IMG/VR virus record: IMGVR_UViG_3300031673_004168
Location: 1 to 55,185 of that record
Source: a virus
Lineage: Duplodnaviria; Caudoviricetes
Strand: one strand, 5' to 3'
DNA: 55,185 bases
The translations under genes and the position numbers were made by a program. Shown here piece after piece: positions 2,885 to 22,500 of the stretch. Position 1 is the stretch's first letter. Each line of letters opens with the position of its first letter. Below the pieces are notes generated by a model that saw only the letters and a program-made list of their open reading frames with translations, had not been told where the DNA came from and ran no database searches.

Positions 2885-3107
2885 GCTGGGGTTGTTGAAA
2901 GGTACCTATTTACCGAAAGAACCCCAAACGATAGTAGAAGGTTTGGCTGAACTATCCAGCATAGGTAGATAGGTCTGGCACAGGCAGGCAATTATAGGTT
3001 AAGGGGCTATTTCCGCATAACAGTCACTTAACGAGACTCAGGAGCGGAGACACGTTGCGGATAAGTTTGTCACGCTGGGCAGGGGATAAACCCTGTTGTC
3101 TGTGCCA
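2885..3107 (+). ncRNA. Candidate structured ncRNA(s): pseudoknot-like unit followed by a tRNA-like unit
   Basis: Stems GGGGTT/AACCCC, GATAGT/ACTATC, ACCTATTTACC/GGTAGATAGGT, TGGCACAGGC/GTCTGTGCCA and GCAGGG/CCCTGT in a non-coding gap. Confidence 0.45.
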
Positions 3108-3276
3108 ATTAAAATTTAGGAAGTGAAAAATAAAAACACAAATCTTTATTCAAATACATTGTCCCACGTGTGGTGAGTGGGTACTAAGAAAAGATGATTA
3201 CGAATTTTCGTGTTGTCCGTATTGTGGGGCAGTCGTAGAAACTGATAAAGCCAAGAAAGTATATTATGAGAAAATT

Positions 3277-4086
3277 ATGAAAAATTATATCTGTAAAGGT
3301 TGTGGAGAAGAAATTAATCCATATTTTAATAGTACATGCTCTTACTGTGGCACAGAAAATCCTGTTATGACTAAACCAAAGATGCCCAAGATAGAATCAG
3401 CATACGGTGAAAGCCCATTAGCGGAATTGTATAAATATTACCAAAGGAACAAACGTATATTTTCATCATATCTAATGAACGAAGGAAAAGATGAGGAGAA
3501 AAAGAAGCCAAACTTTCCAAAAGAGATTGGCGGTCTACACGCTTCCAAGATATGGATAGACGAAGCAAGCGGCTTCGACGATTGCATGGGAAAAACTCTT
3601 TTTGTCAAATGCCCAAAATGCGGCAAGAAACAACTTTTTTGTGATAATATTTTTTATTATAGGTGCATGAATTGTTATGAGATGTATACCAAAGAGCAAT
3701 ATTATAAGGAGGCTAAAATGCCAGTTGAAGAATTGTATGTAGATTATTTTGTAGATTGTCCCGAATGTGGCAATAGGATTAGGGTAGACGAAGCGATTGT
3801 TCGGTCTACTCTTTGGATAACTACGTGTAGGTGCGGTCACGAATTTAGAACGGAGACTGAATTGTTTAAACGGTCAAAACAAAAGGAGAAAAAAATGCTA
3901 AAAGTAATTTCAGACGTGTACGAGAAGACAAGCGATGCGGTGTTGGTGGAGAAACATTTTGGAATTTGTCATGGTGTTTTCAATGATAGCAATCCAATGG
4001 ACGCAATTTTAATCAATGGATTCAAAGAAGAAATTTTAAAGAAAGCGAAAGAGCTTGAGAAAGCGGAGAATGACAAAAAAGTATAA
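3277..4086 (+). CDS. Multi zinc-ribbon protein (frame open upstream to 3127)
   Basis: CKGC..CSYC, CPKC..CMNC and CPEC..CRC pairs; an in-frame upstream segment encodes a further CPTC..CPYC ribbon. Confidence 0.7.
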   Translation: MKNYICKGCGEEINPYFNSTCSYCGTENPVMTKPKMPKIESAYGESPLAELYKYYQRNKRIFSSYLMNEGKDEEKKKPNFPKEIGGLHASKIWIDEASGFDDCMGKTLFVKCPKCGKKQLFCDNIFYYRCMNCYEMYTKEQYYKEAKMPVEELYVDYFVDCPECGNRIRVDEAIVRSTLWITTCRCGHEFRTETELFKRSKQKEKKMLKVISDVYEKTSDAVLVEKHFGICHGVFNDSNPMDAILINGFKEEILKKAKELEKAENDKKV

Positions 4087-4294
4087 ATCCCTGACCAAAT
4101 ACAAATTAGGCGATAAGCAAATTTTCATAGTTGAGAATGACGAACGCAGAAAAAACTTTGATGATTTGGTCGGCAGGAAAGTAATCATAGACGGCGTGAA
4201 ATATAAATGTTTAGGCGTGGAAAGAAAACTTCACGCACCGCCGTGGGTTGTTGGAGAAAAAATAGGGTTAATGGTAAATGAGAAAAACAAATAG
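4070..4294 (+). CDS. Hypothetical protein
   Basis: ATG after GGAG, overlapping the neighbouring genes. Confidence 0.55.
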   Translation: MTKKYKSLTKYKLGDKQIFIVENDERRKNFDDLVGRKVIIDGVKYKCLGVERKLHAPPWVVGEKIGLMVNEKNK

Positions 4295-4634
4295 AGAACC
4301 ATTATTAAGTCTAACAAAAAAAGATTTTAGGGTAGACACTTTTAAGTCTGGCGGAAAAGGCGGTCAACATCAGAATAAAACAAATTCTGGAGTAAGAATA
4401 ACGCATATAGCAACTGGTATTTCTTACGAATGCAGAGAAGAACGGGAACAAAGCCGAAATAAGAAAAAAGCTTTTAAAAAATTATGTGCTGATAAAAAAT
4501 TTCTGTTATGGATTAAACAAGAAAGCTTTAAAAAGGAAAACGAAGAGAGAGATAAAGAAAAATATTCTATTACGGAAGAGAATATAATAGTAGAACACAG
4601 GGGAAATGGCAAATGGGAAAAGGAGAAGCAATGA
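4278..4634 (+). CDS. Peptide chain release factor-like (GGQ, ArfB/RF-1 domain) peptidyl-tRNA hydrolase
   Basis: SGGKGGQHQNKTNSGVRITH...EREQSRNKKKA matches the RF-1/ArfB catalytic domain. Confidence 0.88.
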   Translation: MRKTNREPLLSLTKKDFRVDTFKSGGKGGQHQNKTNSGVRITHIATGISYECREEREQSRNKKKAFKKLCADKKFLLWIKQESFKKENEERDKEKYSITEENIIVEHRGNGKWEKEKQ

Positions 4635-4742
4635 AACGGATGCACCCGCAAATTATAGGAGTCTACGTAGTTGTAATGATAGGAGGAATAATACTGATGT
4701 GTTGTTTCTTCGGATTCTTGAGTTCACTTTGTAGATAAAAAT

Positions 4743-4770
4743 TTGCATTCCCAAAAAAGTAGTGTATACT
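4743..4770 (+). promoter_or_regulatory. sigma70-type promoter
   Basis: TTGCAT-N16-TATACT, same hexamers as the promoter at 486; AGGAGG RBS downstream. Confidence 0.65.
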
Positions 4771-4789
4771 TTGTAAAAAGGAGGAAGAA

Positions 4790-5047
4790 GTGAATAGACG
4801 AGAAATGGAAGAAAAAATAGCAAATTTAGCAACAGAAGTTTGCAATCTTAAAACAAAGATGGGTATGGTCAATAATGTTTTACAAAATTTGTTTGGTTCT
4901 TTTTATTATTCTGAATCTCGCACATTAGAAGAAATAAAGAAATCCATTCTTCTTTTAGCCGAAACCTTAGGCTACGAGTTCAAGCCAGAAAGCACAAAGA
5001 AAGAGCCGGCGAAGTTTGTCAAGAAAGAAACCAAGAAAAATACATGA
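4790..5047 (+). CDS. Hypothetical protein
   Basis: GTG start with AGGAGG RBS and upstream promoter. Confidence 0.7.
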   Translation: MNRREMEEKIANLATEVCNLKTKMGMVNNVLQNLFGSFYYSESRTLEEIKKSILLLAETLGYEFKPESTKKEPAKFVKKETKKNT

Positions 5048-5137
5048 AACGCTTTCTTATAATAACAGCAATGACAATAGTAAAAGGCTTCCTTGATATT
5101 TTAGTTAAGTTGTACCGTTTTTTGGAGGAGAAAAACA

Positions 5138-5359
5138 ATGGCATATAAAAAAGTAGATACAGCTGAAGGGTTCAGGAATATAATTACCTGTACTGATGAA
5201 GATGAAATTGAAGAAATAAGAATTACTTTTACAAGAAAAAACAAGTTATTTAAAAAGAAAACACCGCATTCTCTTATATACATAAAAGGTAATGCTGACC
5301 TTAGAATAATAATCGAGGACAAGCCCATGTGGGGCAAACCGATAGTGGATGACAATTAA
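5138..5359 (+). CDS. Hypothetical protein
   Basis: ATG with GGAGG RBS. Confidence 0.65.
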   Translation: MAYKKVDTAEGFRNIITCTDEDEIEEIRITFTRKNKLFKKKTPHSLIYIKGNADLRIIIEDKPMWGKPIVDDN

Positions 5360-5364
5360 AAAAA

Positions 5365-5663
5365 TAACCAAGTGGCTGAATATGCGTGCCAGAGCATAAA
5401 GCACAGAGTGGATAGCTGAAAAGCTATTCGGGCTGGTTGTACAGGTTTATGGGCATAATGCTAAAAAAGCTTTGAGTTGGTCAACTCTTAGCCTCGTAAG
5501 AACAGGACAAATCGCATTAAACTAATGATGATGGCTGTATCCTGTTGGAGGTACTCAATCCTTCCGTTCATTAAGACTAAGCATGACGATACTTAGTTGA
5601 ACGTGGCAGAATAATTCTTGTAAATCGATGGCTTGTGGGTAGTCAGGAATCCCACCTTGGTTA
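5365..5663 (+). ncRNA. Candidate ~300-nt highly structured ncRNA with tRNA-like closing architecture
   Basis: Ends pair (TAACCAAG/CTTGGTTA); GTGGG/CCCAC hairpin stacks on the 3' strand; at least six internal stems including a GAAA tetraloop; no ORF; terminator directly downstream. Confidence 0.6.
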
Positions 5664-5690
5664 AAAATTTTAGAGTTAAAGTCGACATTG

Positions 5691-5739
5691 AAGCCGATAT
5701 TTAGGCAGAGTCAAATCTGTTTAGGTATCGGCTTTTTTT
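5691..5739 (+). terminator. Rho-independent terminator
   Basis: AAGCCGATAT...GTATCGGCTT long hairpin followed by a T tract. Confidence 0.8.
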
Positions 5740-5759
5740 GTTTTAAAAAGGAGGAATTT

Positions 5760-5954
5760 ATGGGAAGCAAAAAGAAAGACAAGCAATTGGGTAAAATTGT
5801 TATGTCCGCAACTCAATTAAGAAGAATGGCAAATGAAATACAACAAAGTTATGGGACTAAGGACAATGTTGAGATTAAGGCTGTTCTAAGCTATAGGGGA
5901 AAAGGAAATGAAAAAACATTAGGAATAATATATAGAAAAGGAGAAACCATATGA
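5760..5954 (+). CDS. Hypothetical protein
   Basis: ATG at 5760 after AAGGAGG (preferred to the TTG start at 5688, which lies over the terminator). Confidence 0.6.
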   Translation: MGSKKKDKQLGKIVMSATQLRRMANEIQQSYGTKDNVEIKAVLSYRGKGNEKTLGIIYRKGETI

Positions 5955-6544
5955 GCACAGAGAAAGAATTAAAAAAATTGGCAGATAAAGAAGCTAAGAG
6001 AGTTCGGGAAATGAATTTTAGGATTATAACGTATCTTCTATATGTAAATCCAAGAGGGAAAAGATATAATTATAGAATTGGAAGCAGATTATGTTTAAAC
6101 GAAAATATGAAGGAATTTGAAAAATCGATAGAAGAAGAAAACAGTTTTCTGTTTGAAACTATGGAAGATGTTTCCAAAGATTTGGTAAAGAAAAGAACTA
6201 AATGGCACATTTTATATAAAAAATTTAAGTATAACAAAATCGTTAAAAAGTTCAGAAACTCTAAAGATATTCCAAAGAGTGCACATATTTTAATTTTTAT
6301 TGATATGTACGAAAACATCACTTGTGTTTGGTTGAAACAAAAAAACGGAGTTCGTAAGTTAAATTGTAGGCAATGGGAAAGTTTGATAAAAAAAATAAAA
6401 AAAGGCAAAGGCGAGAATTTAATATACATCAAAGGCAACGACAAAAAAAGCGTAATTAAAAAAGGGATACTTAAAGCTAAAGAATTTGAAAGAAAATTAA
6501 AGGAGAAAAATGAACAAAGTAAAAATCAAGTCAGTAGAGATTGA
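5951..6544 (+). CDS. Lys-rich hypothetical protein
   Basis: ATGA overlap with the previous gene; AGGAG RBS. Confidence 0.65.
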   Translation: MSTEKELKKLADKEAKRVREMNFRIITYLLYVNPRGKRYNYRIGSRLCLNENMKEFEKSIEEENSFLFETMEDVSKDLVKKRTKWHILYKKFKYNKIVKKFRNSKDIPKSAHILIFIDMYENITCVWLKQKNGVRKLNCRQWESLIKKIKKGKGENLIYIKGNDKKSVIKKGILKAKEFERKLKEKNEQSKNQVSRD

Positions 6545-6791
6545 AGTTGGCAAAAAGAAGTTCAATTTAACAGTTGAAGAAGCAAAGAAGCTGAAGAATG
6601 TTTTAGACGAACTTTTTGGTAAAGAGATTATCAGAGAGGTAAAAGAAATCCACCACCATGACGGGCATTCGCATCCGTGGTATTGGTATCCGCCATGTAG
6701 TACTACTACGCTTGAAATTCCACCGCCAACAGTTTATTTCGATAGCGGTTCAGTCGGATATGAAAATTATGCACTTAAAATAACATGCTAA
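6510..6791 (+). CDS. Hypothetical protein
   Basis: AAGGAG RBS; small phage-type ORF. Confidence 0.65.
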   Translation: MNKVKIKSVEIEVGKKKFNLTVEEAKKLKNVLDELFGKEIIREVKEIHHHDGHSHPWYWYPPCSTTTLEIPPPTVYFDSGSVGYENYALKITC

Positions 6792-6800
6792 GGAGGAAAA

Positions 6801-7823
6801 ATGGTACTAACATCACCAAACTTAAAACCAGAAAGCGTTCTAATAACCGAAGAAAGCGACAGAGCGTTTGGCAGAGCGTTAATTACAGGAGTTTCAGGAT
6901 TTGTGGGCAGGCATTTAGTTGAATTTCTTCAACGTGAACATCCTGAAATAGAAATTCATGGGCTTGTTAGGTACAGGTCAAATGTAGAAAAACTTGATGG
7001 GATAAACTTGCATTATGGCGACCTTAACGATTTTTCGTCATTGTCATGTTTGATTGCGGAAACAAGACCTGATTGCATCTACCACCTTGCGGCGATGAGT
7101 TACGTCGACCAGAGTTTTAAGGCTCCAGCGGATACATTAAAGACGAATATTATCGGCACATGTAATCTTTTGGAATCCGTGAAATGTCTTAAATCGGATT
7201 TAGGATATGACCCAGTAATAGCAATAATCTCATCAAGCGAAGTGTATGGGCAGGTAAAAGAAGATGAGTTGCCGATAAATGAAATGAATCAATTTAGACC
7301 TGCTTCGCCATATGCCGTGAGTAAGGTCGGAGAGGATATGTGTGCCCTTCAGTACCACCTATCTTGGGGCTTAAAAACCTTGCGTAGCAGGGCGTTTACT
7401 CATTCGGGTTCGGGCAGAGGGGAGCAATTCTGCCTATCAAGTTTCGCCAAACAAATAGCAGAAATAGAAAAAGGCAAACGAGAATTTATTTCGGTAGGCA
7501 ATTTAGATTCCGTAAGAACACTTTGCGATGTAAGAGATATGGTAAGAGCGTACTGGCTTATGGTAACGAAATGCGAATATGGTCATGTTTACAATATCGG
7601 TGGCGATGAACATATGACGGTAGGCGAAGCGTTAGATGTTCTTCGTGGTATGTCAACAAAAGACATAGAAGTTAGAGTAGACCCGAAACGATTAAGACCG
7701 TCTGACGTTACTTTACAGTTACCAGACAGTTCAAAGTTCCGAGAAAAGACAGGCTGGAAACCTGAATATTCTGCTAAAGAGATGATGGAAAGCATCTTAA
7801 ACTTTTGGAGAGAACGAGTATGA
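6801..7823 (+). CDS. GDP-mannose/GDP-heptose 4,6-dehydratase-family extended SDR
   Basis: ITGVSGFVG Rossmann motif, HLAAMSYV, SSSEVYG, SPYAVSK (YxxxK), GNLDSVR and RLRPSDV motifs of Gmd-like enzymes. Confidence 0.9.
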   Translation: MVLTSPNLKPESVLITEESDRAFGRALITGVSGFVGRHLVEFLQREHPEIEIHGLVRYRSNVEKLDGINLHYGDLNDFSSLSCLIAETRPDCIYHLAAMSYVDQSFKAPADTLKTNIIGTCNLLESVKCLKSDLGYDPVIAIISSSEVYGQVKEDELPINEMNQFRPASPYAVSKVGEDMCALQYHLSWGLKTLRSRAFTHSGSGRGEQFCLSSFAKQIAEIEKGKREFISVGNLDSVRTLCDVRDMVRAYWLMVTKCEYGHVYNIGGDEHMTVGEALDVLRGMSTKDIEVRVDPKRLRPSDVTLQLPDSSKFREKTGWKPEYSAKEMMESILNFWRERV

Positions 7824-8506
7824 TTAAGTTGATACGTGGAGATTGTTTGGAAGAAATGAAGAAGATGCCGGATAAGAGTATAGACATGATTTTAACTGAC
7901 CCTCCGTATGGAATATCTTTCAAGTCCCACAGACAAACTTATCAAAAAGCAATAAAAAATGACGGCTTTGATGAATGGATTTTGCTATTACCAAACATGT
8001 TAAAAGAGTTTAAGCGTTTATTAACTGATACTGGTTGTTGTTGTTGTTGTTGTTGTGGTGGTGGAAAAACTCCAGTAACAGCAATTTTCACTATTGAATC
8101 ACTTAAATATTTTAATCTCATACAAACTTTAGTTTGGAAAAAGTTTATTGGATTAGGTTGGAAATATAGACCGAGTTATGAAAATATAGTTGTATTAAGT
8201 AAAGATTCCAAAAACTATAATTTTTATGATACAAGCAAAAAATGTTCAAATGTTATAGAAGGTATAAACCAAAAAATACCAAGAAAAGGCGAGCATCCTA
8301 CCGTTAAACCAATTAAATTGATGGAAAAATTGATTGAAATACATTCTATACAAAACATGACAATCCTTGACCCCTTCATGGGAAGTGGTACTACTGGAAT
8401 TGCATGCAAAAAGTTAAACCGTAATTTTATAGGCATAGAAATTGATAAAGATTATTTTAAATTGGCAGAACAACGAATAAAAAATACAAGTTTGAGGTTG
8501 TTATGA
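7820..8506 (+). CDS. DNA methyltransferase, N6-A/N4-C family, beta class, with a poly-Cys tract
   Basis: TDPPY, HPTVKP and LDPFMGSGTT motifs; start placed at the ATGA overlap at 7820. Confidence 0.92.
   Translation: MIKLIRGDCLEEMKKMPDKSIDMILTDPPYGISFKSHRQTYQKAIKNDGFDEWILLLPNMLKEFKRLLTDTGCCCCCCCGGGKTPVTAIFTIESLKYFNLIQTLVWKKFIGLGWKYRPSYENIVVLSKDSKNYNFYDTSKKCSNVIEGINQKIPRKGEHPTVKPIKLMEKLIEIHSIQNMTILDPFMGSGTTGIACKKLNRNFIGIEIDKDYFKLAEQRIKNTSLRLL
8036..8056 (+). repeat. (TGT)7 in-frame trinucleotide repeat
   Basis: GGT-(TGT)7-GGT-GGT-GGA encodes GCCCCCCCGGG. Confidence 0.95.
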
Positions 8507-19538: not shown

Positions 19539-22500
19539 ATGATTTCAGAACATCTTAAAGAACATGAAATCTTAGGTATAAAAGGAAACACCGATTCACG
19601 CTACGTCAACATCTCCGGAGATACAATGACCGGACCGCTTATTGTTCAGGGAGCTATAACTGGCACATCTCTAACAGACGGCACAGCAACACTATCTTCT
19701 GGCAACCTAACCGGCATGGGAAACATCACAGGCGATGATGTAGATTTATCACTTGGCACAGGCAATATAACCACATCAGGTTTAGCGACCGTAGACGACA
19801 TACTTCTCCCAAATGGCGGAACAGTAGGCACCGCAACCTACAAATGGCTCTTTGACGAGACTAATGGGGATATAACGGCTACCGGCAACGTCGGCATAGG
19901 GACGACGAGTCCTGAATATATACTTGATATAAATGGTGGGACTAATGACAATGATTCTACAATTAGAATAGGTAATTCTGATGATACTACGATACTTTGG
20001 ATAGCTGGAACAAGGGGGGCTTATGGATATAATAGAAGTGCTAATTTATTTACATTACAGGCAGGTGTTGGGAAAAGTTTAACTTTTAACACTGGTGCAT
20101 CTACATTTGGAAATAATGAAAGAATGAGAATAACAAGTGACGGCAACGTCGGCATAGGCGAGACAGACCCCGAAACCCTAACCGAATGGAGTTCTACAGT
20201 TCCATACCTAACGCTACACAATACCACAGAGGAGGACACAGATTACGGCAGGGAAAGCCGAATCATCGCAAAAGGCGAGCAAAGTGGGACAGAAGAAACC
20301 ACTCTCGGCTATCTTGAATTTGCCCACGACGGGACTGGAGATGACCAGAAAGGCATATTCACGCTTGCTTTGAACGACGGCACAGACGGAGACACGCCGA
20401 CAGCAGTGATGACGGTAGATAGTGCGGGCAACGTCGGCATAGGTACGACGGCGCCTGGGGCGAATTTAGAAGTGGGCGGTAGCGCAAATGAGAAGTTGAG
20501 GTTAGTTGATACAAATAGTGATGGAAATCCATTTTTAAGTTTTTACCAATCAACTGCTGAGAGGGCTAGGATACAGTATTTAGACAGTGGAGACCAAATG
20601 TATTTTTATAGTCAAAAGAAATTTTCATTTCGTCCGCAGAATGTAGAAGCAATGGTAATTGATGATGGCGGCAACGTCGGCATAGGCGATACGAGCCCAT
20701 CCACGCTAACCGAATGGAGTTCCACAGTTCCTTACTTAACTCTGCACAACACCACCGAGGAAGATACCGACTACGGCAGGGAAAGCAGAATCATCGCAAA
20801 AGGCGAGCAAAGTGGGACAGAAGAAACCACTCTCGGCTATCTTGAATTTGCCCACGACGGGACTGGAGATGATGAAAAAGGTATATTCACACTTAAACTG
20901 AACGACGGCACGGACGGAGATACACCAACAAGCGTGGTAACGGTAGACAGTGCGGGCAACGTCGGCATCGGGACGACGGGACCGGGGGCACCATTGCATA
21001 TAAATTCAACAAGCGGAGAGAGTATAGCCCTTCTCATTTTAGAATCGGATGTATCAGGGGGGGGATATAATGAAATTCAATCAAAGGTTGTCGGGGGATT
21101 AAATTTTGGCGGCATACGTTTTTATGCAGAATCAGGTGCCTATGATTCTTCTATAAGATTTGTTACTCAAACGGCTAGTGATAGCCTAACAGAACAGATG
21201 GTTATTCAACATGACGGCAACGTCGGCATAGGCGTAACCGACCCAGACACTAAACTTGAAATTCTAAACGGCGGAACTCAGGCTAAACTATCATATGACG
21301 CTACAAACTACATCACATTAGCCACTCAATCTGACGGTGATTTGACCATTGATAGTAATAAGACGAGTTATGTTTTGGATTTGGGCGATGGCACAATCGA
21401 AACTACTGGAGCTGATTGGGTAAAGGACACTCATATAGATTGGGGAACTGGAGCAAATCAAGTCAGTGCGGCAGATGTTCCGGTAACAATTCTAAGCGGG
21501 GCTACTTACGACGATATTCAGAATTTTATTGACACAACACAATCAGCAGGAATAATATCTGGCGGTGAGGTTACGGTAAATTCTCCCGAAGATGGCATGG
21601 TCGACGTAGCCGCTGGAACAGGAATGATTCGTTCAGCCGATACAACTACAAGTCCGCTTTTATTCTTCGATTGGGATGCTACGGAAAATGTGGAATTAAC
21701 CGATAATGTTTTAAATTATATCATAATGAATTATCACGCCACTACTCCATTCGTTTCAGTAATAACTTCTCTTGAGGATTATGATAAAAACACTCAAATA
21801 CCCATTGATATAGTGTTTCGTAAGGGCGATGAAGTAGAAATAGACGGAAGTGCTGGTATGTTTCTGCCTAACTATAAACAGAATATGTGGCATAGGTTGA
21901 TACATCGAGGGATAGAACAGATAAATGGTACAGCTCTTGTTGCTGAAAGCGGGACAAGGTACCTGACCATAACGGAAGGTATTTATTATTATTGGGTAGA
22001 ATCTGTTGTTGACGCAATAGACACAACGGGAGCAGGAAGATTTAAACCAGTATATCGTGACGGAGGGACGGGTTGGACTTACGGTGCCGAGGCACAACAA
22101 TTTTCCAATATTCTCTATGATGACGGAGATGGAACACCTGGCGATATTGGAGTAGCGAAATATGCCACATACTACGTTTACCAGTGTCTTGAGGGAGATA
22201 TGTATATCCAATATGGTCAAGGACAGAATAACACACTCACGATAGCACAGAATGAAGATATACCGTCACCTCCAAATTATCTCGATAAGTGGGCTACGTT
22301 AAGGGCTAAAATAATAATCCTAAATGGTGCAACAAACGCTACATCAATAAGCAACTATTCATCAACCGCATTTACTTCATACGCCGCTGGAGTGCATAGC
22401 GAATTGACTGGGTTAGCATGGACTTCTTCGGGGCATACAGGTACAGCAACAAGATTAGCAGGGTTTGAAGGTGCAGGTGCGGCATCAGAATACACTATGA

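Follow-up and report, generated by a model that had tools for sequence, protein, structure and literature searches.

The closest described relative of the RNA considered here is the manA RNA (RF01745), the motif of which, located upstream of mannose and fructose genes, was listed by Weinberg et al. in 2010 among riboswitch candidates (PMC2864571). The manA RNA carries optional modules (PMC3023696), and is reported to form octamers, decamers, and a 60-subunit shell by way of kissing loops and a GNRA contact (preprint 10.64898/2026.07.01.735769). Two further RNAs, ROOL and GOLLD, form cages held together by kissing loops which had been flagged beforehand by covariation (Kretsch et al. 2025, PMC12286853), and kissing loops and palindromic pairing are described as common motifs of RNA oligomers (review PMC12990946). 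Large assemblies made of RNA only are known for ROOL, GOLLD, and, according to the 2026 preprint, manA. Here, an element of 299 nucleotides (nt) at positions 5365-5663 on the + strand of the viral record IMGVR_UViG_3300031673_004168 was analyzed, the complete record of 55,185 bases being referred to below as the window. Judged from comparison of homologous sequences, this element genuinely encodes a folded RNA of approximately 300 nt, a member of an uncatalogued family. The favored reading, to which a probability of about 0.6 is assigned, is that the product is a stable 299-nt non-coding RNA (ncRNA) of a manA-related family, usually located in the transfer RNA (tRNA) arrays of phages and homo-oligomeric via its loops.

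The element sits in a 400-nt gap on the + strand between the end of an open reading frame (ORF) at 5359 and the next likely start at 5760. Every long ORF up to approximately 49.5 kb is on the + strand, and three long ORFs near the 3' end of the window are on the - strand. The energy of the single-sequence fold was only modestly unusual (z = -2.10 for the + strand and -2.60 for the - strand), with 5 of 200 shuffles folding equally well on the + strand, and the case for a structured RNA therefore rests on the comparison of homologues. A blastn search of phage records returned 17 matches, comprising 15 Prevotella Lak megaphages and two copies of a 735-kb uncultured phage. A covariance model built in the present analysis (R1; 315 positions, 81 pairs) matches the window once only, with 237.1 bits. 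Scanning viral contigs for the loop of the 3' hairpin P9 gave 119 loci, of which 43 are recognized by R1 (at least 93 bits, or truncated matches), the remainder sharing only the 15-mer. A second viral scan with a pattern for hairpins P2 and P3, blind to the 3' half, gave 23 loci, seven of them new, and six of these seven are members. In genome contigs nine members were found in 119 loci, a total close to the chance number of pattern matches, as the pattern was too loose, while the metagenome scan gave 55 matches in 54 of 70 loci. Altogether the family comprises 78 distinct full-length sequences from contigs of phages, metagenomes, and metagenome-assembled genomes (MAGs). Record titles and run labels assign members to gut, activated sludge, marine, soil, and groundwater samples, and many of the contigs that carry the element are of very large size (200-554 kb). 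Relatives of the element and its terminator also exist in other samples, in DNA contigs of four sequencing runs, where coverage was patchy and they were not counted; one variant in those runs alters the P9 loop at 5642, 5646, 5647, and 5650. On one metagenome contig (L268, positions 1-108 and 204-520, - strand) two tandem copies of the RNA are present, the first cut by the contig end.

The consensus structure is supported by covariation. In a MAFFT alignment of 19 homologues, fitted to no model, RNAalifold gave a structure of 81 pairs in 16 helices, in which 89.9% of cells were paired compared with 67.6% in shuffles and 61 of the 81 pairs were compensatory. The covariation score was 0.650, compared with 0.236 in shuffles (0 of 500 reached it) and at most 0.164 for slid partners. 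Model-guided alignment of 38 distinct sequences gave 93.0% of cells paired and 72 of 84 pairs compensatory, and that of 49 distinct sequences 92.2% and 70 of 84, the full consensus being 84 base pairs (bp) in 17 helices. All three alignments surpassed each of 500 shuffles and every slid control. The frequent G-U pairs establish that the + strand is the transcribed strand. In this structure P1 closes a junction bearing P2, P3, a long-range P4 domain that encloses P5 to P8, and P9, and a pseudoknot, PK1, links P2 with P6. The parts of the window copy are as follows.

5365-5372, + strand: P1 5' strand, TAACCAAG, closing the element by pairing with 5656-5663
5373-5404, + strand: P2 hairpin of manA type, shared with manA, with column frequencies given below
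5375-5377 with 5400-5402, + strand: P2a, GCU with AGC; P2b is 5382-5387 with 5391-5397
5378-5382, + strand: P2 internal loop GAAU(A), opposite AA 5398-5399; the loop triplet GCC is at 5388-5390
5388-5390, + strand: 5' side of PK1, GCC in the P2 loop, pairs with GGC 5533-5535 in the P6 internal loop after UGAU
5404-5435, + strand: P3 hairpin, CAG 5404-5406 with CTG 5433-5435, GAAA tetraloop 5418-5421
5410-5417 with 5422-5429, + strand: P3 inner stem, GGATAGCT with AGCTATTC, the stem pairs of which covary
5447-5463, + strand: P4 5' strand, TTAT 5447-5450, GCAT 5453-5456, loop AA 5457-5458, TGCTA 5459-5463
5469-5492, + strand: P5 hairpin, GCT 5469-5471 with AGC 5490-5492, GAGTT 5474-5478 with AACTC 5483-5487
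5479-5482, + strand: P5 loop GGTC, 4 nt, self-complementary with G-U
5501-5546, + strand: P6, AACAGGA 5501-5507 with TCCTGTT 5540-5546, CA 5508-5509 with TG 5536-5537
5511-5514 with 5529-5532, + strand: P6 inner pairs, ATCG with TGAT (helices 12-13); the 3' side of PK1, GGC, is at 5533-5535
5547-5564, + strand: P7 hairpin, GGAGG/CCTTC, 8-nt loop TACTCAAT, family consensus UA-N-N-C-A-A-U
5565-5603, + strand: P8, CGTTC 5565-5569 with GAACG 5599-5603, GACTAAG 5575-5581 with CTTAGTT 5592-5598
5582-5591, + strand: P8 loop CATGACGATA, contains the 4-nt palindrome CATG
5604-5623, + strand: P4 3' strand, TGGCA 5604-5608, GAAUA loop 5609-5613, ATTC 5614-5617, GTAA 5620-5623
5635-5655, + strand: P9 hairpin, GTGGG/CCCAC, 11-nt loop TAGTCAGGAAT, abuts the P1 3' strand and equals the manA 3' hairpin
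5656-5663, + strand: P1 3' strand, CTTGGTTA, partner of 5365-5372

An earlier sequence-only reading of this stretch had proposed a large, densely structured phage ncRNA with its own terminator, a description that the homologue covariation and the terminator described below bear out. All of the stems that it named were found where it had placed them, and each is a helix of the covariation-supported consensus: the closing stem TAACCAAG/CTTGGTTA is P1, TATGC/GCATA is P2b, GGATAGCT-GAAA-AGCTATTC is P3, GAGTT/AACTC is P5, AACAGGA/TCCTGTT is P6, the GGAGG stem is P7, GTGGG/CCCAC is P9, and the last nested stems are P8. The long-range helix P4 had been missed, and 10 of its 13 pairs (helices 7-9) are compensatory. 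An optional pairing of GACTA (5575-5579) with TAGTC (5640-5644) did not hold: of 38 sequences only that of the window forms it completely, and the proportion of paired cells (76 of 180) is at background level.

Among the individual helices, P1 was recovered, at a length of 7-15 bp and with quite different sequences, in the majority of 25 homologues, a few showing only a weak or offset form, and all six of its modelled pairs are compensatory in both the 38- and 49-sequence sets. All 12 pairs of P8 are compensatory, and P7 is paired in 100% of cells, with four or five of its five pairs compensatory. The GAAA loop of P3 is near-invariant, replaced in only two of 38 sequences (one GCAA, one GAAG), and the fold also has two hairpin loops of the form UA..CA..AU. 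The internal loop GAAUA/AA occurs twice, in P2 and, with its strands swapped, in P4. In the 38 sequences its columns in P2 are G33/A38/A37/Y37/A37 on one side and U38/A38/A38 on the other, and those in P4 are G38 A38 A30 U24 A37 opposite U37 A38 A38. This loop presumably resembles the UAA/GAN motif. A canonical 11-nt receptor for the GAAA tetraloop was sought by eye; the candidates UAUGG 5448-5452 and CUAAG 5577-5581 are in different helices and neither is conserved. PK1 was obtained by a mutual-information scan of unpaired columns, in which two of its pairs (1.42 and 1.34) were the two top pairs outside the model. All three of its pairs are compensatory, with 99.1% of cells paired in 38 sequences and 96.2% in 49 independent sequences, and since the covariance model lacks PK1 the alignments were not fitted to it. 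The same type of scan found no RNA partner for the conserved single-stranded loops of P7 and P9. The P9 loop varies where the search had left it free (UAAUCAUUAAU, UAGAUGCGAAU, and others).

No match to Rfam 15 was obtained in the window at gathering scores, so that no curated family claims the element, and on this point the sequence-only reading was right. Models of tRNA, transfer-messenger RNA (tmRNA), RNase P RNA, and group I and II introns have no match in the window. With permissive filters on 5250-5800, manA was the only Rfam family matched at E up to 10 (24.2 bits, E = 3.2e-4; E = 0.032 for the whole-window search), over the full model from position 1 to 192. Neither tmRNA, group I intron, nor RNase P RNA, which had been listed as families to be checked, appears at E up to 10 on 5250-5800. 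The suggested kinship to GOLLD or ROOL is wrong: neither is matched there, nor at gathering score in the window, and only manA resembles the element. The stretch TGGCTGAA, which had been compared with positions 8-15 of a tRNA, forms the 5' side of the P2 motif of manA type, where it is conserved; neither ARAGORN nor the tRNA model of Rfam detects anything in the window.

The relation to manA was also examined in the reverse direction. Two bona fide manA controls were fetched by a pattern from the printed Rfam consensus, which score 87.6 and 76.7 bits to RF01745. R1 matches the 87.6-bit control at 35.7 bits (rough E = 5e-10), aligning P1, P2, and P9. Both RNAs are phage-borne. In both, P1 is followed at once by GUGRCUGAAUAA-hairpin-UAAGG (P2), aligned with high posterior probability in both directions. 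The manA P2 reads UGACUGAAUAA-[stem, loop UUGUGAG or UCGUGAG]-UAARGUA, and the consensus of the new family UGRCUGAAUAA-[stem, loop UUGAKAG]-UAAGGYA. Both also possess a 5-bp 3' hairpin with an 11-nt loop, UA..CAG.AAU, which abuts the 3' strand of P1 (P9), and manA has in addition a GAAA hairpin and a UAACCA loop resembling the P7 loop of the new family. Their sizes differ, 299 nt compared with approximately 190 nt. The manA interior, roughly 130 nt in which three hairpins enclosed by a helix are followed by a further hairpin, is not encountered in the window; the Rfam alignment of the window requires 32- and 119-nt insertions, and most of the interior pairs are broken in it. In the new family the interior is rebuilt, consisting of P3, the P4 domain with four hairpins, the second GAAUA/AA loop, and PK1. 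The settings differ as well: members of the new family lie among tRNA genes in large phages from gut, soil, and water, and a few Bacteroidales carry it as well, whereas manA lies within 5' untranslated regions of mannose/fructose, nucleotide, chaperone, and photosynthesis genes in marine cyanophages and gamma-proteobacteria. On these sequence comparisons the new RNA is read as an expanded relative sharing the manA core, which by Rfam's own threshold is not a member of RF01745.

The loops of P5 and P8 provide the indication of assembly. In 74 of the 78 sequences the 4-nt loop of P5 is GGCC, GCGC, GUAC, GAUC, GGCU, GGUC, or GCGU, and 12 of the 15 distinct loops are self-complementary. When positions 1-4 and 2-3 of the loop are counted as pairs, they are paired in 97.4% and 96.6% of cases with 12 and 15 double changes, a level reached by none of 500 shuffles. 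Positions 2-3 are GC 23, CG 7, UA 4, GU 2, AU 1, and other 1 in one set, and GC 26, UA 8, CG 7, and other 3 in the other. Since neighbors in a tetraloop are unable to pair in the same molecule, the loop is read as pairing antiparallel with its P5 counterpart in a second copy. The loop of P8, some 9 nt long, contains a 6-nt palindrome in 63 of the 78 sequences, of at least seven kinds (UAGCUA, UAAUUA, UCAUGA, UGAUCA, UCGCGA, GCUAGC, and GUCGAC). As a control, a palindrome was found in none of 29 distinct loops of P7 (8 nt) and in 5 of 18 of P9 (11 nt). Moreover, the palindromes predicted from the viral set held in the genome-contig set, in 9 of 9 sequences for both P5 and P8, including the new type UCGCGA. 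The RNA thus probably pairs with copies of itself, and homo-oligomers are proposed because of these self-complementary loops and the precedents of manA, ROOL, and GOLLD. Such pairing would engage the loop of P5 and, in the majority of members, that of P8, each with its equivalent in another copy. The putative contacts between copies are homotypic (palindromic) in the new family, whereas in manA they join different loops (L5-L7' and L8-L9').

Compared with ROOL and GOLLD, the likeness lies in setting and probable behavior and not in sequence. Those RNAs are phage or prophage RNAs often near tRNA islands, a setting which holds for the new family and not for the window copy, and their elaborate folds include kissing loops that join copies and are conserved by covariation. 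They differ in being over 500-800 nt long, and their cages have been seen, whereas assembly of the new RNA is predicted from sequence. The prohead RNA of phi29 and retroviral dimerisation hairpins also multimerise by complementary loops, palindromic ones giving homodimers; they are unrelated to the new RNA in sequence and role, and the analogy is one of mechanism only.

Several observations weigh against the favored reading. Regarding the family, all sets of members were fished by sequence patterns, and the fished motifs consequently appear more invariant than they really are. The model-guided alignments (A4, A7, and A8) were fitted to the model and lean towards its structure, and for PK1 covariation cannot separate an intermolecular from an intramolecular contact. 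Regarding manA, the window stays far below the gathering score of 55.2 bits, the homologues score 15-34 bits and none passes, and R1 misses the second control, so that one of two was matched. As for the loops, that of P8 in the window has only the 4-nt CAUG, and its P5 loop GGUC requires G-U pairs. L302, the closest relative found to the window, has the P5 loop GGAC, which is not self-complementary; self-pairing is thus weakest in the window's own lineage. No Watson-Crick palindrome is present in the P8 loops of L129, L132, L131 (GACG type), and L088. Short palindromes are also common in the long loop of P6 (median 12 nt), 50 of 65 distinct loops having one of at least 4 nt. Composition-preserving shuffles of single loops were often palindromic too (0.06-0.67), which is not significant; this null was uninformative and was replaced by the control loops and the pair counts on loop columns. 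Finally, the window copy is atypical in its setting, with no tRNA in 55 kb.

For the family as a whole, tRNA genes are the usual surroundings. Of 110 loci, 94 have them on the strand of the element (49 of 56 from viral contigs and phage records, and 45 of 54 from metagenomes), and no tRNA on the opposite strand was found at any of the 110. At 38 of the 54 metagenome loci a tRNA is within 200 nt. In the Lak phages the element lies between tRNA-Thr (or an odd tRNA) and tRNA-Met. In one subgroup it is flush with the tRNAs, with a spacer of 0-1 nt between the upstream tRNA and P1 and one of 2-6 nt between P1 and the following tRNA (2-4 nt in L010, L027, and L056). In L010, for instance, the upstream tRNA runs to 2010, the element extends from P1 to P1 at 2011-2313, and the following tRNA begins at 2316. 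Such spacing is as expected if tRNA processing frees the RNA: in tRNA arrays it would be excised by the enzymes that trim the tRNAs on either side, namely RNase P and those of 3' tRNA processing. The tRNA cluster of phage T4 likewise encodes small stable RNAs (species 1 and 2), which are released by tRNA processing. They are shorter, and we know of no relation between them and the new RNA.

It is within these arrays that a catalytic or mobile RNA, such as a self-splicing intron, a hydrolytic ribozyme, or a retroelement RNA, could be imagined to have lodged. Introns are known in phage tRNA regions, and the large multi-helix fold with a pseudoknot and a GNRA loop would suit such an RNA. However, the element lies between tRNA genes and not inside them, P1 joins both of its ends so that no exons would be brought together, and no Rfam intron or ribozyme is matched at E up to 10. 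Furthermore, no adjacent reverse transcriptase or homing endonuclease gene was found in the loci examined, and the element is single-copy in each of five genomes searched. There is hardly any likelihood left for this explanation.

Some copies, including that of the window, stand alone. The flanks of the window copy are as follows.

5138-5359, + strand: upstream ORF of 73 amino acids, no Pfam family, stop codon 6 nt before P1
5690-5745, + strand: intrinsic terminator, 20-pair stem 5690-5735 with a loop of 6, then TTTTTTTGTTTT

The terminator that had been claimed downstream is therefore present, its 20-pair stem being followed by a T run, and it is the only terminator-like site on the + strand in 3000-8000. 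It begins 27 nt after P1, has no strand in common with the element, and would set the 3' end of the RNA. In a relative from run X6 one base is inserted in each terminator arm (T after 5703 and G after 5721), and the hairpin would persist. Terminator-like hairpins follow other stand-alone copies too (L121 and L076). At the other end, the stop codon of the upstream ORF is so near P1 that the RNA may be the 3' end of the transcript of that ORF, and no promoter-like site was found between the two. Four high-GC copies are located in Bacteroidales or Muribaculaceae MAG contigs. The neighbors of two of the four (L184 and L199), which were examined, are housekeeping genes, namely leuA-leuCD-leuB, priA, and a mannose-1-phosphate guanylyltransferase-like gene (L184:1862-2950 and L199:223-1395, both - strand). 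A TAnnTTTG box, which we take to be the Bacteroidetes promoter consensus, lies 25-35 nt upstream of L184, L199, and the low-GC copy L239. Among the relatives of one carrier genome the element is sporadic, being present in 2 of 41 genomes of the genus and, in an order-level search with strict filters in which few candidates were scored and which is no proof of absence, in 1 of 151 genomes of the order, that one being the centre genome itself.

These neighbors bear on the older view of manA, according to which the RNA would be a cis regulator, a riboswitch or leader sensing a sugar-nucleotide metabolite and controlling neighboring genes, as was first proposed for manA, once a riboswitch candidate upstream of mannose/fructose genes. 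In the window a GDP-mannose 4,6-dehydratase-like gene (6801-7823, + strand) lies 1.1 kb downstream, and the two Bacteroidales chromosomal copies are beside the guanylyltransferase-like gene. The presence of GDP-mannose pathway genes near three stand-alone copies echoes the association after which manA was named, and may be due to chance or shared synteny. Nevertheless, a strong terminator and three small ORFs separate the element from the dehydratase gene, the transferase gene of L184 is on the opposite strand, and at the 94 loci with same-strand tRNA genes the element is frequently placed immediately between tRNAs, where there is no ORF for it to regulate. In addition, the terminator stem does not overlap the element, so that there is no alternative pairing of the kind looked for in an expression platform. 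A role as a cis regulator is consequently regarded as very improbable. More generally, the occurrence of a manA-type fold among tRNA genes, like ROOL and GOLLD, argues against the riboswitch view of manA itself.

More weight is given to the possibility that the RNA is a monomer that binds a protein or mimics tRNA, for example as a decoy or guide for enzymes that process or repair tRNA or for tRNA-targeting defence enzymes. In this case the acceptor and T arms would be represented by P1 stacked on P9, and the palindromic loops would serve a dimeric protein or matter little. The location inside tRNA arrays agrees with such a role, as does the way in which P9 (5 bp) adjoins the 3' strand of P1, itself 8 bp long in the window, like the T arm on the acceptor stem. 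The highly conserved P7 and P9 loops for which mutual information finds no RNA partner, and a gene for an RF-1 domain protein 730 nt upstream of the element in the window, can also be counted in its favor. Against this, tRNA models do not detect the element, P1 varies from 7 to 15 bp across members and is not fixed at 7, and no protein gene is common to the stand-alone loci examined. The G-U variants of the P5 loop (GGCU, GGUC, and GCGU), furthermore, keep self-complementarity of the RNA and not symmetry of the DNA, which argues for selection on RNA and not on DNA. The monomer is on balance considered unlikely, and the homo-oligomeric ncRNA is preferred. More speculatively, its assembly would have a role in trans while infection proceeds, connected with translation or the supply of tRNA, and not as a cis regulator. 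A fuller version, put forward only tentatively and with some doubt, is that of a new self-assembling class of phage RNA, with a long manA fold, release by tRNA processing, and closed homo-oligomers or cages formed via homotypic P5-P5' and P8-P8' pairing and a GAAA contact, which during infection would affect how tRNAs or other components of translation are supplied or protected.

No description of the family was found in the published literature on manA RNA, on the ncRNAs of huge and Lak phages, or on structured RNAs of tRNA arrays, supplements being outside this search. In the Lak paper (PMC6784885) the words non-coding, ncRNA, tmRNA, tRNA array, and structured are all missing. A catalogue of 8,495 candidate viral RNAs has been derived from IMG/VR (PMC10690425), and the family might already be listed in its supplements. 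The present results widen the manA fold from marine cyanophages to Lak-type gut megaphages, soil and groundwater phages, and a few Bacteroidales genomes. If the proposed assembly is true, cage-forming RNAs would be a recurrent device of large phages, represented by ROOL, GOLLD, manA, and the new family. The structure offers testable predictions in the form of one pseudoknot and two loops, the self-complementarity of which can be broken and restored. Unlike the uncultured megaphages, the chromosomal copies make Bacteroidales a possible route to genetics, if an isolate that carries one is found.

Some further features were observed around the RNA. The RF-1 domain gene of the window (4278-4634, + strand) encodes a protein of 118 amino acids with only the RF-1 (GGQ) domain (PF00472, 4.6e-23), which is closest to release factor models and PrfH, below their cut-offs, and is like a phage-borne peptidyl-tRNA hydrolase. 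Directly after the dehydratase gene lies an adenine-specific DNA methyltransferase-like gene (7805-8506, + strand; CcrM/PRK11524-type, below cut-offs). A match to an archaeal C/D box sRNA at 20865-20920 on the + strand (20.5 bits, E = 0.87) is most likely due to chance. Two phage contigs carry a tmRNA on the - strand, L127 (10941-11374), which has a true manA RNA, and L055 (1678-2077), which has the new RNA. In L212 the tRNA array that contains the RNA also encodes a suppressor tRNA with the anticodon UUA, which reads TAA (7324-7398, + strand), and this sequence hints at recoding of stop codons in that phage. Sub-threshold matches to YrlA, a Y RNA-like family, were obtained in the same phage tRNA arrays on the + strand (L083:3627-3743, L046:4043-4158, and L001:1329-1443; 24-39 bits compared with a gathering score of 69), and may represent further structured RNAs there.

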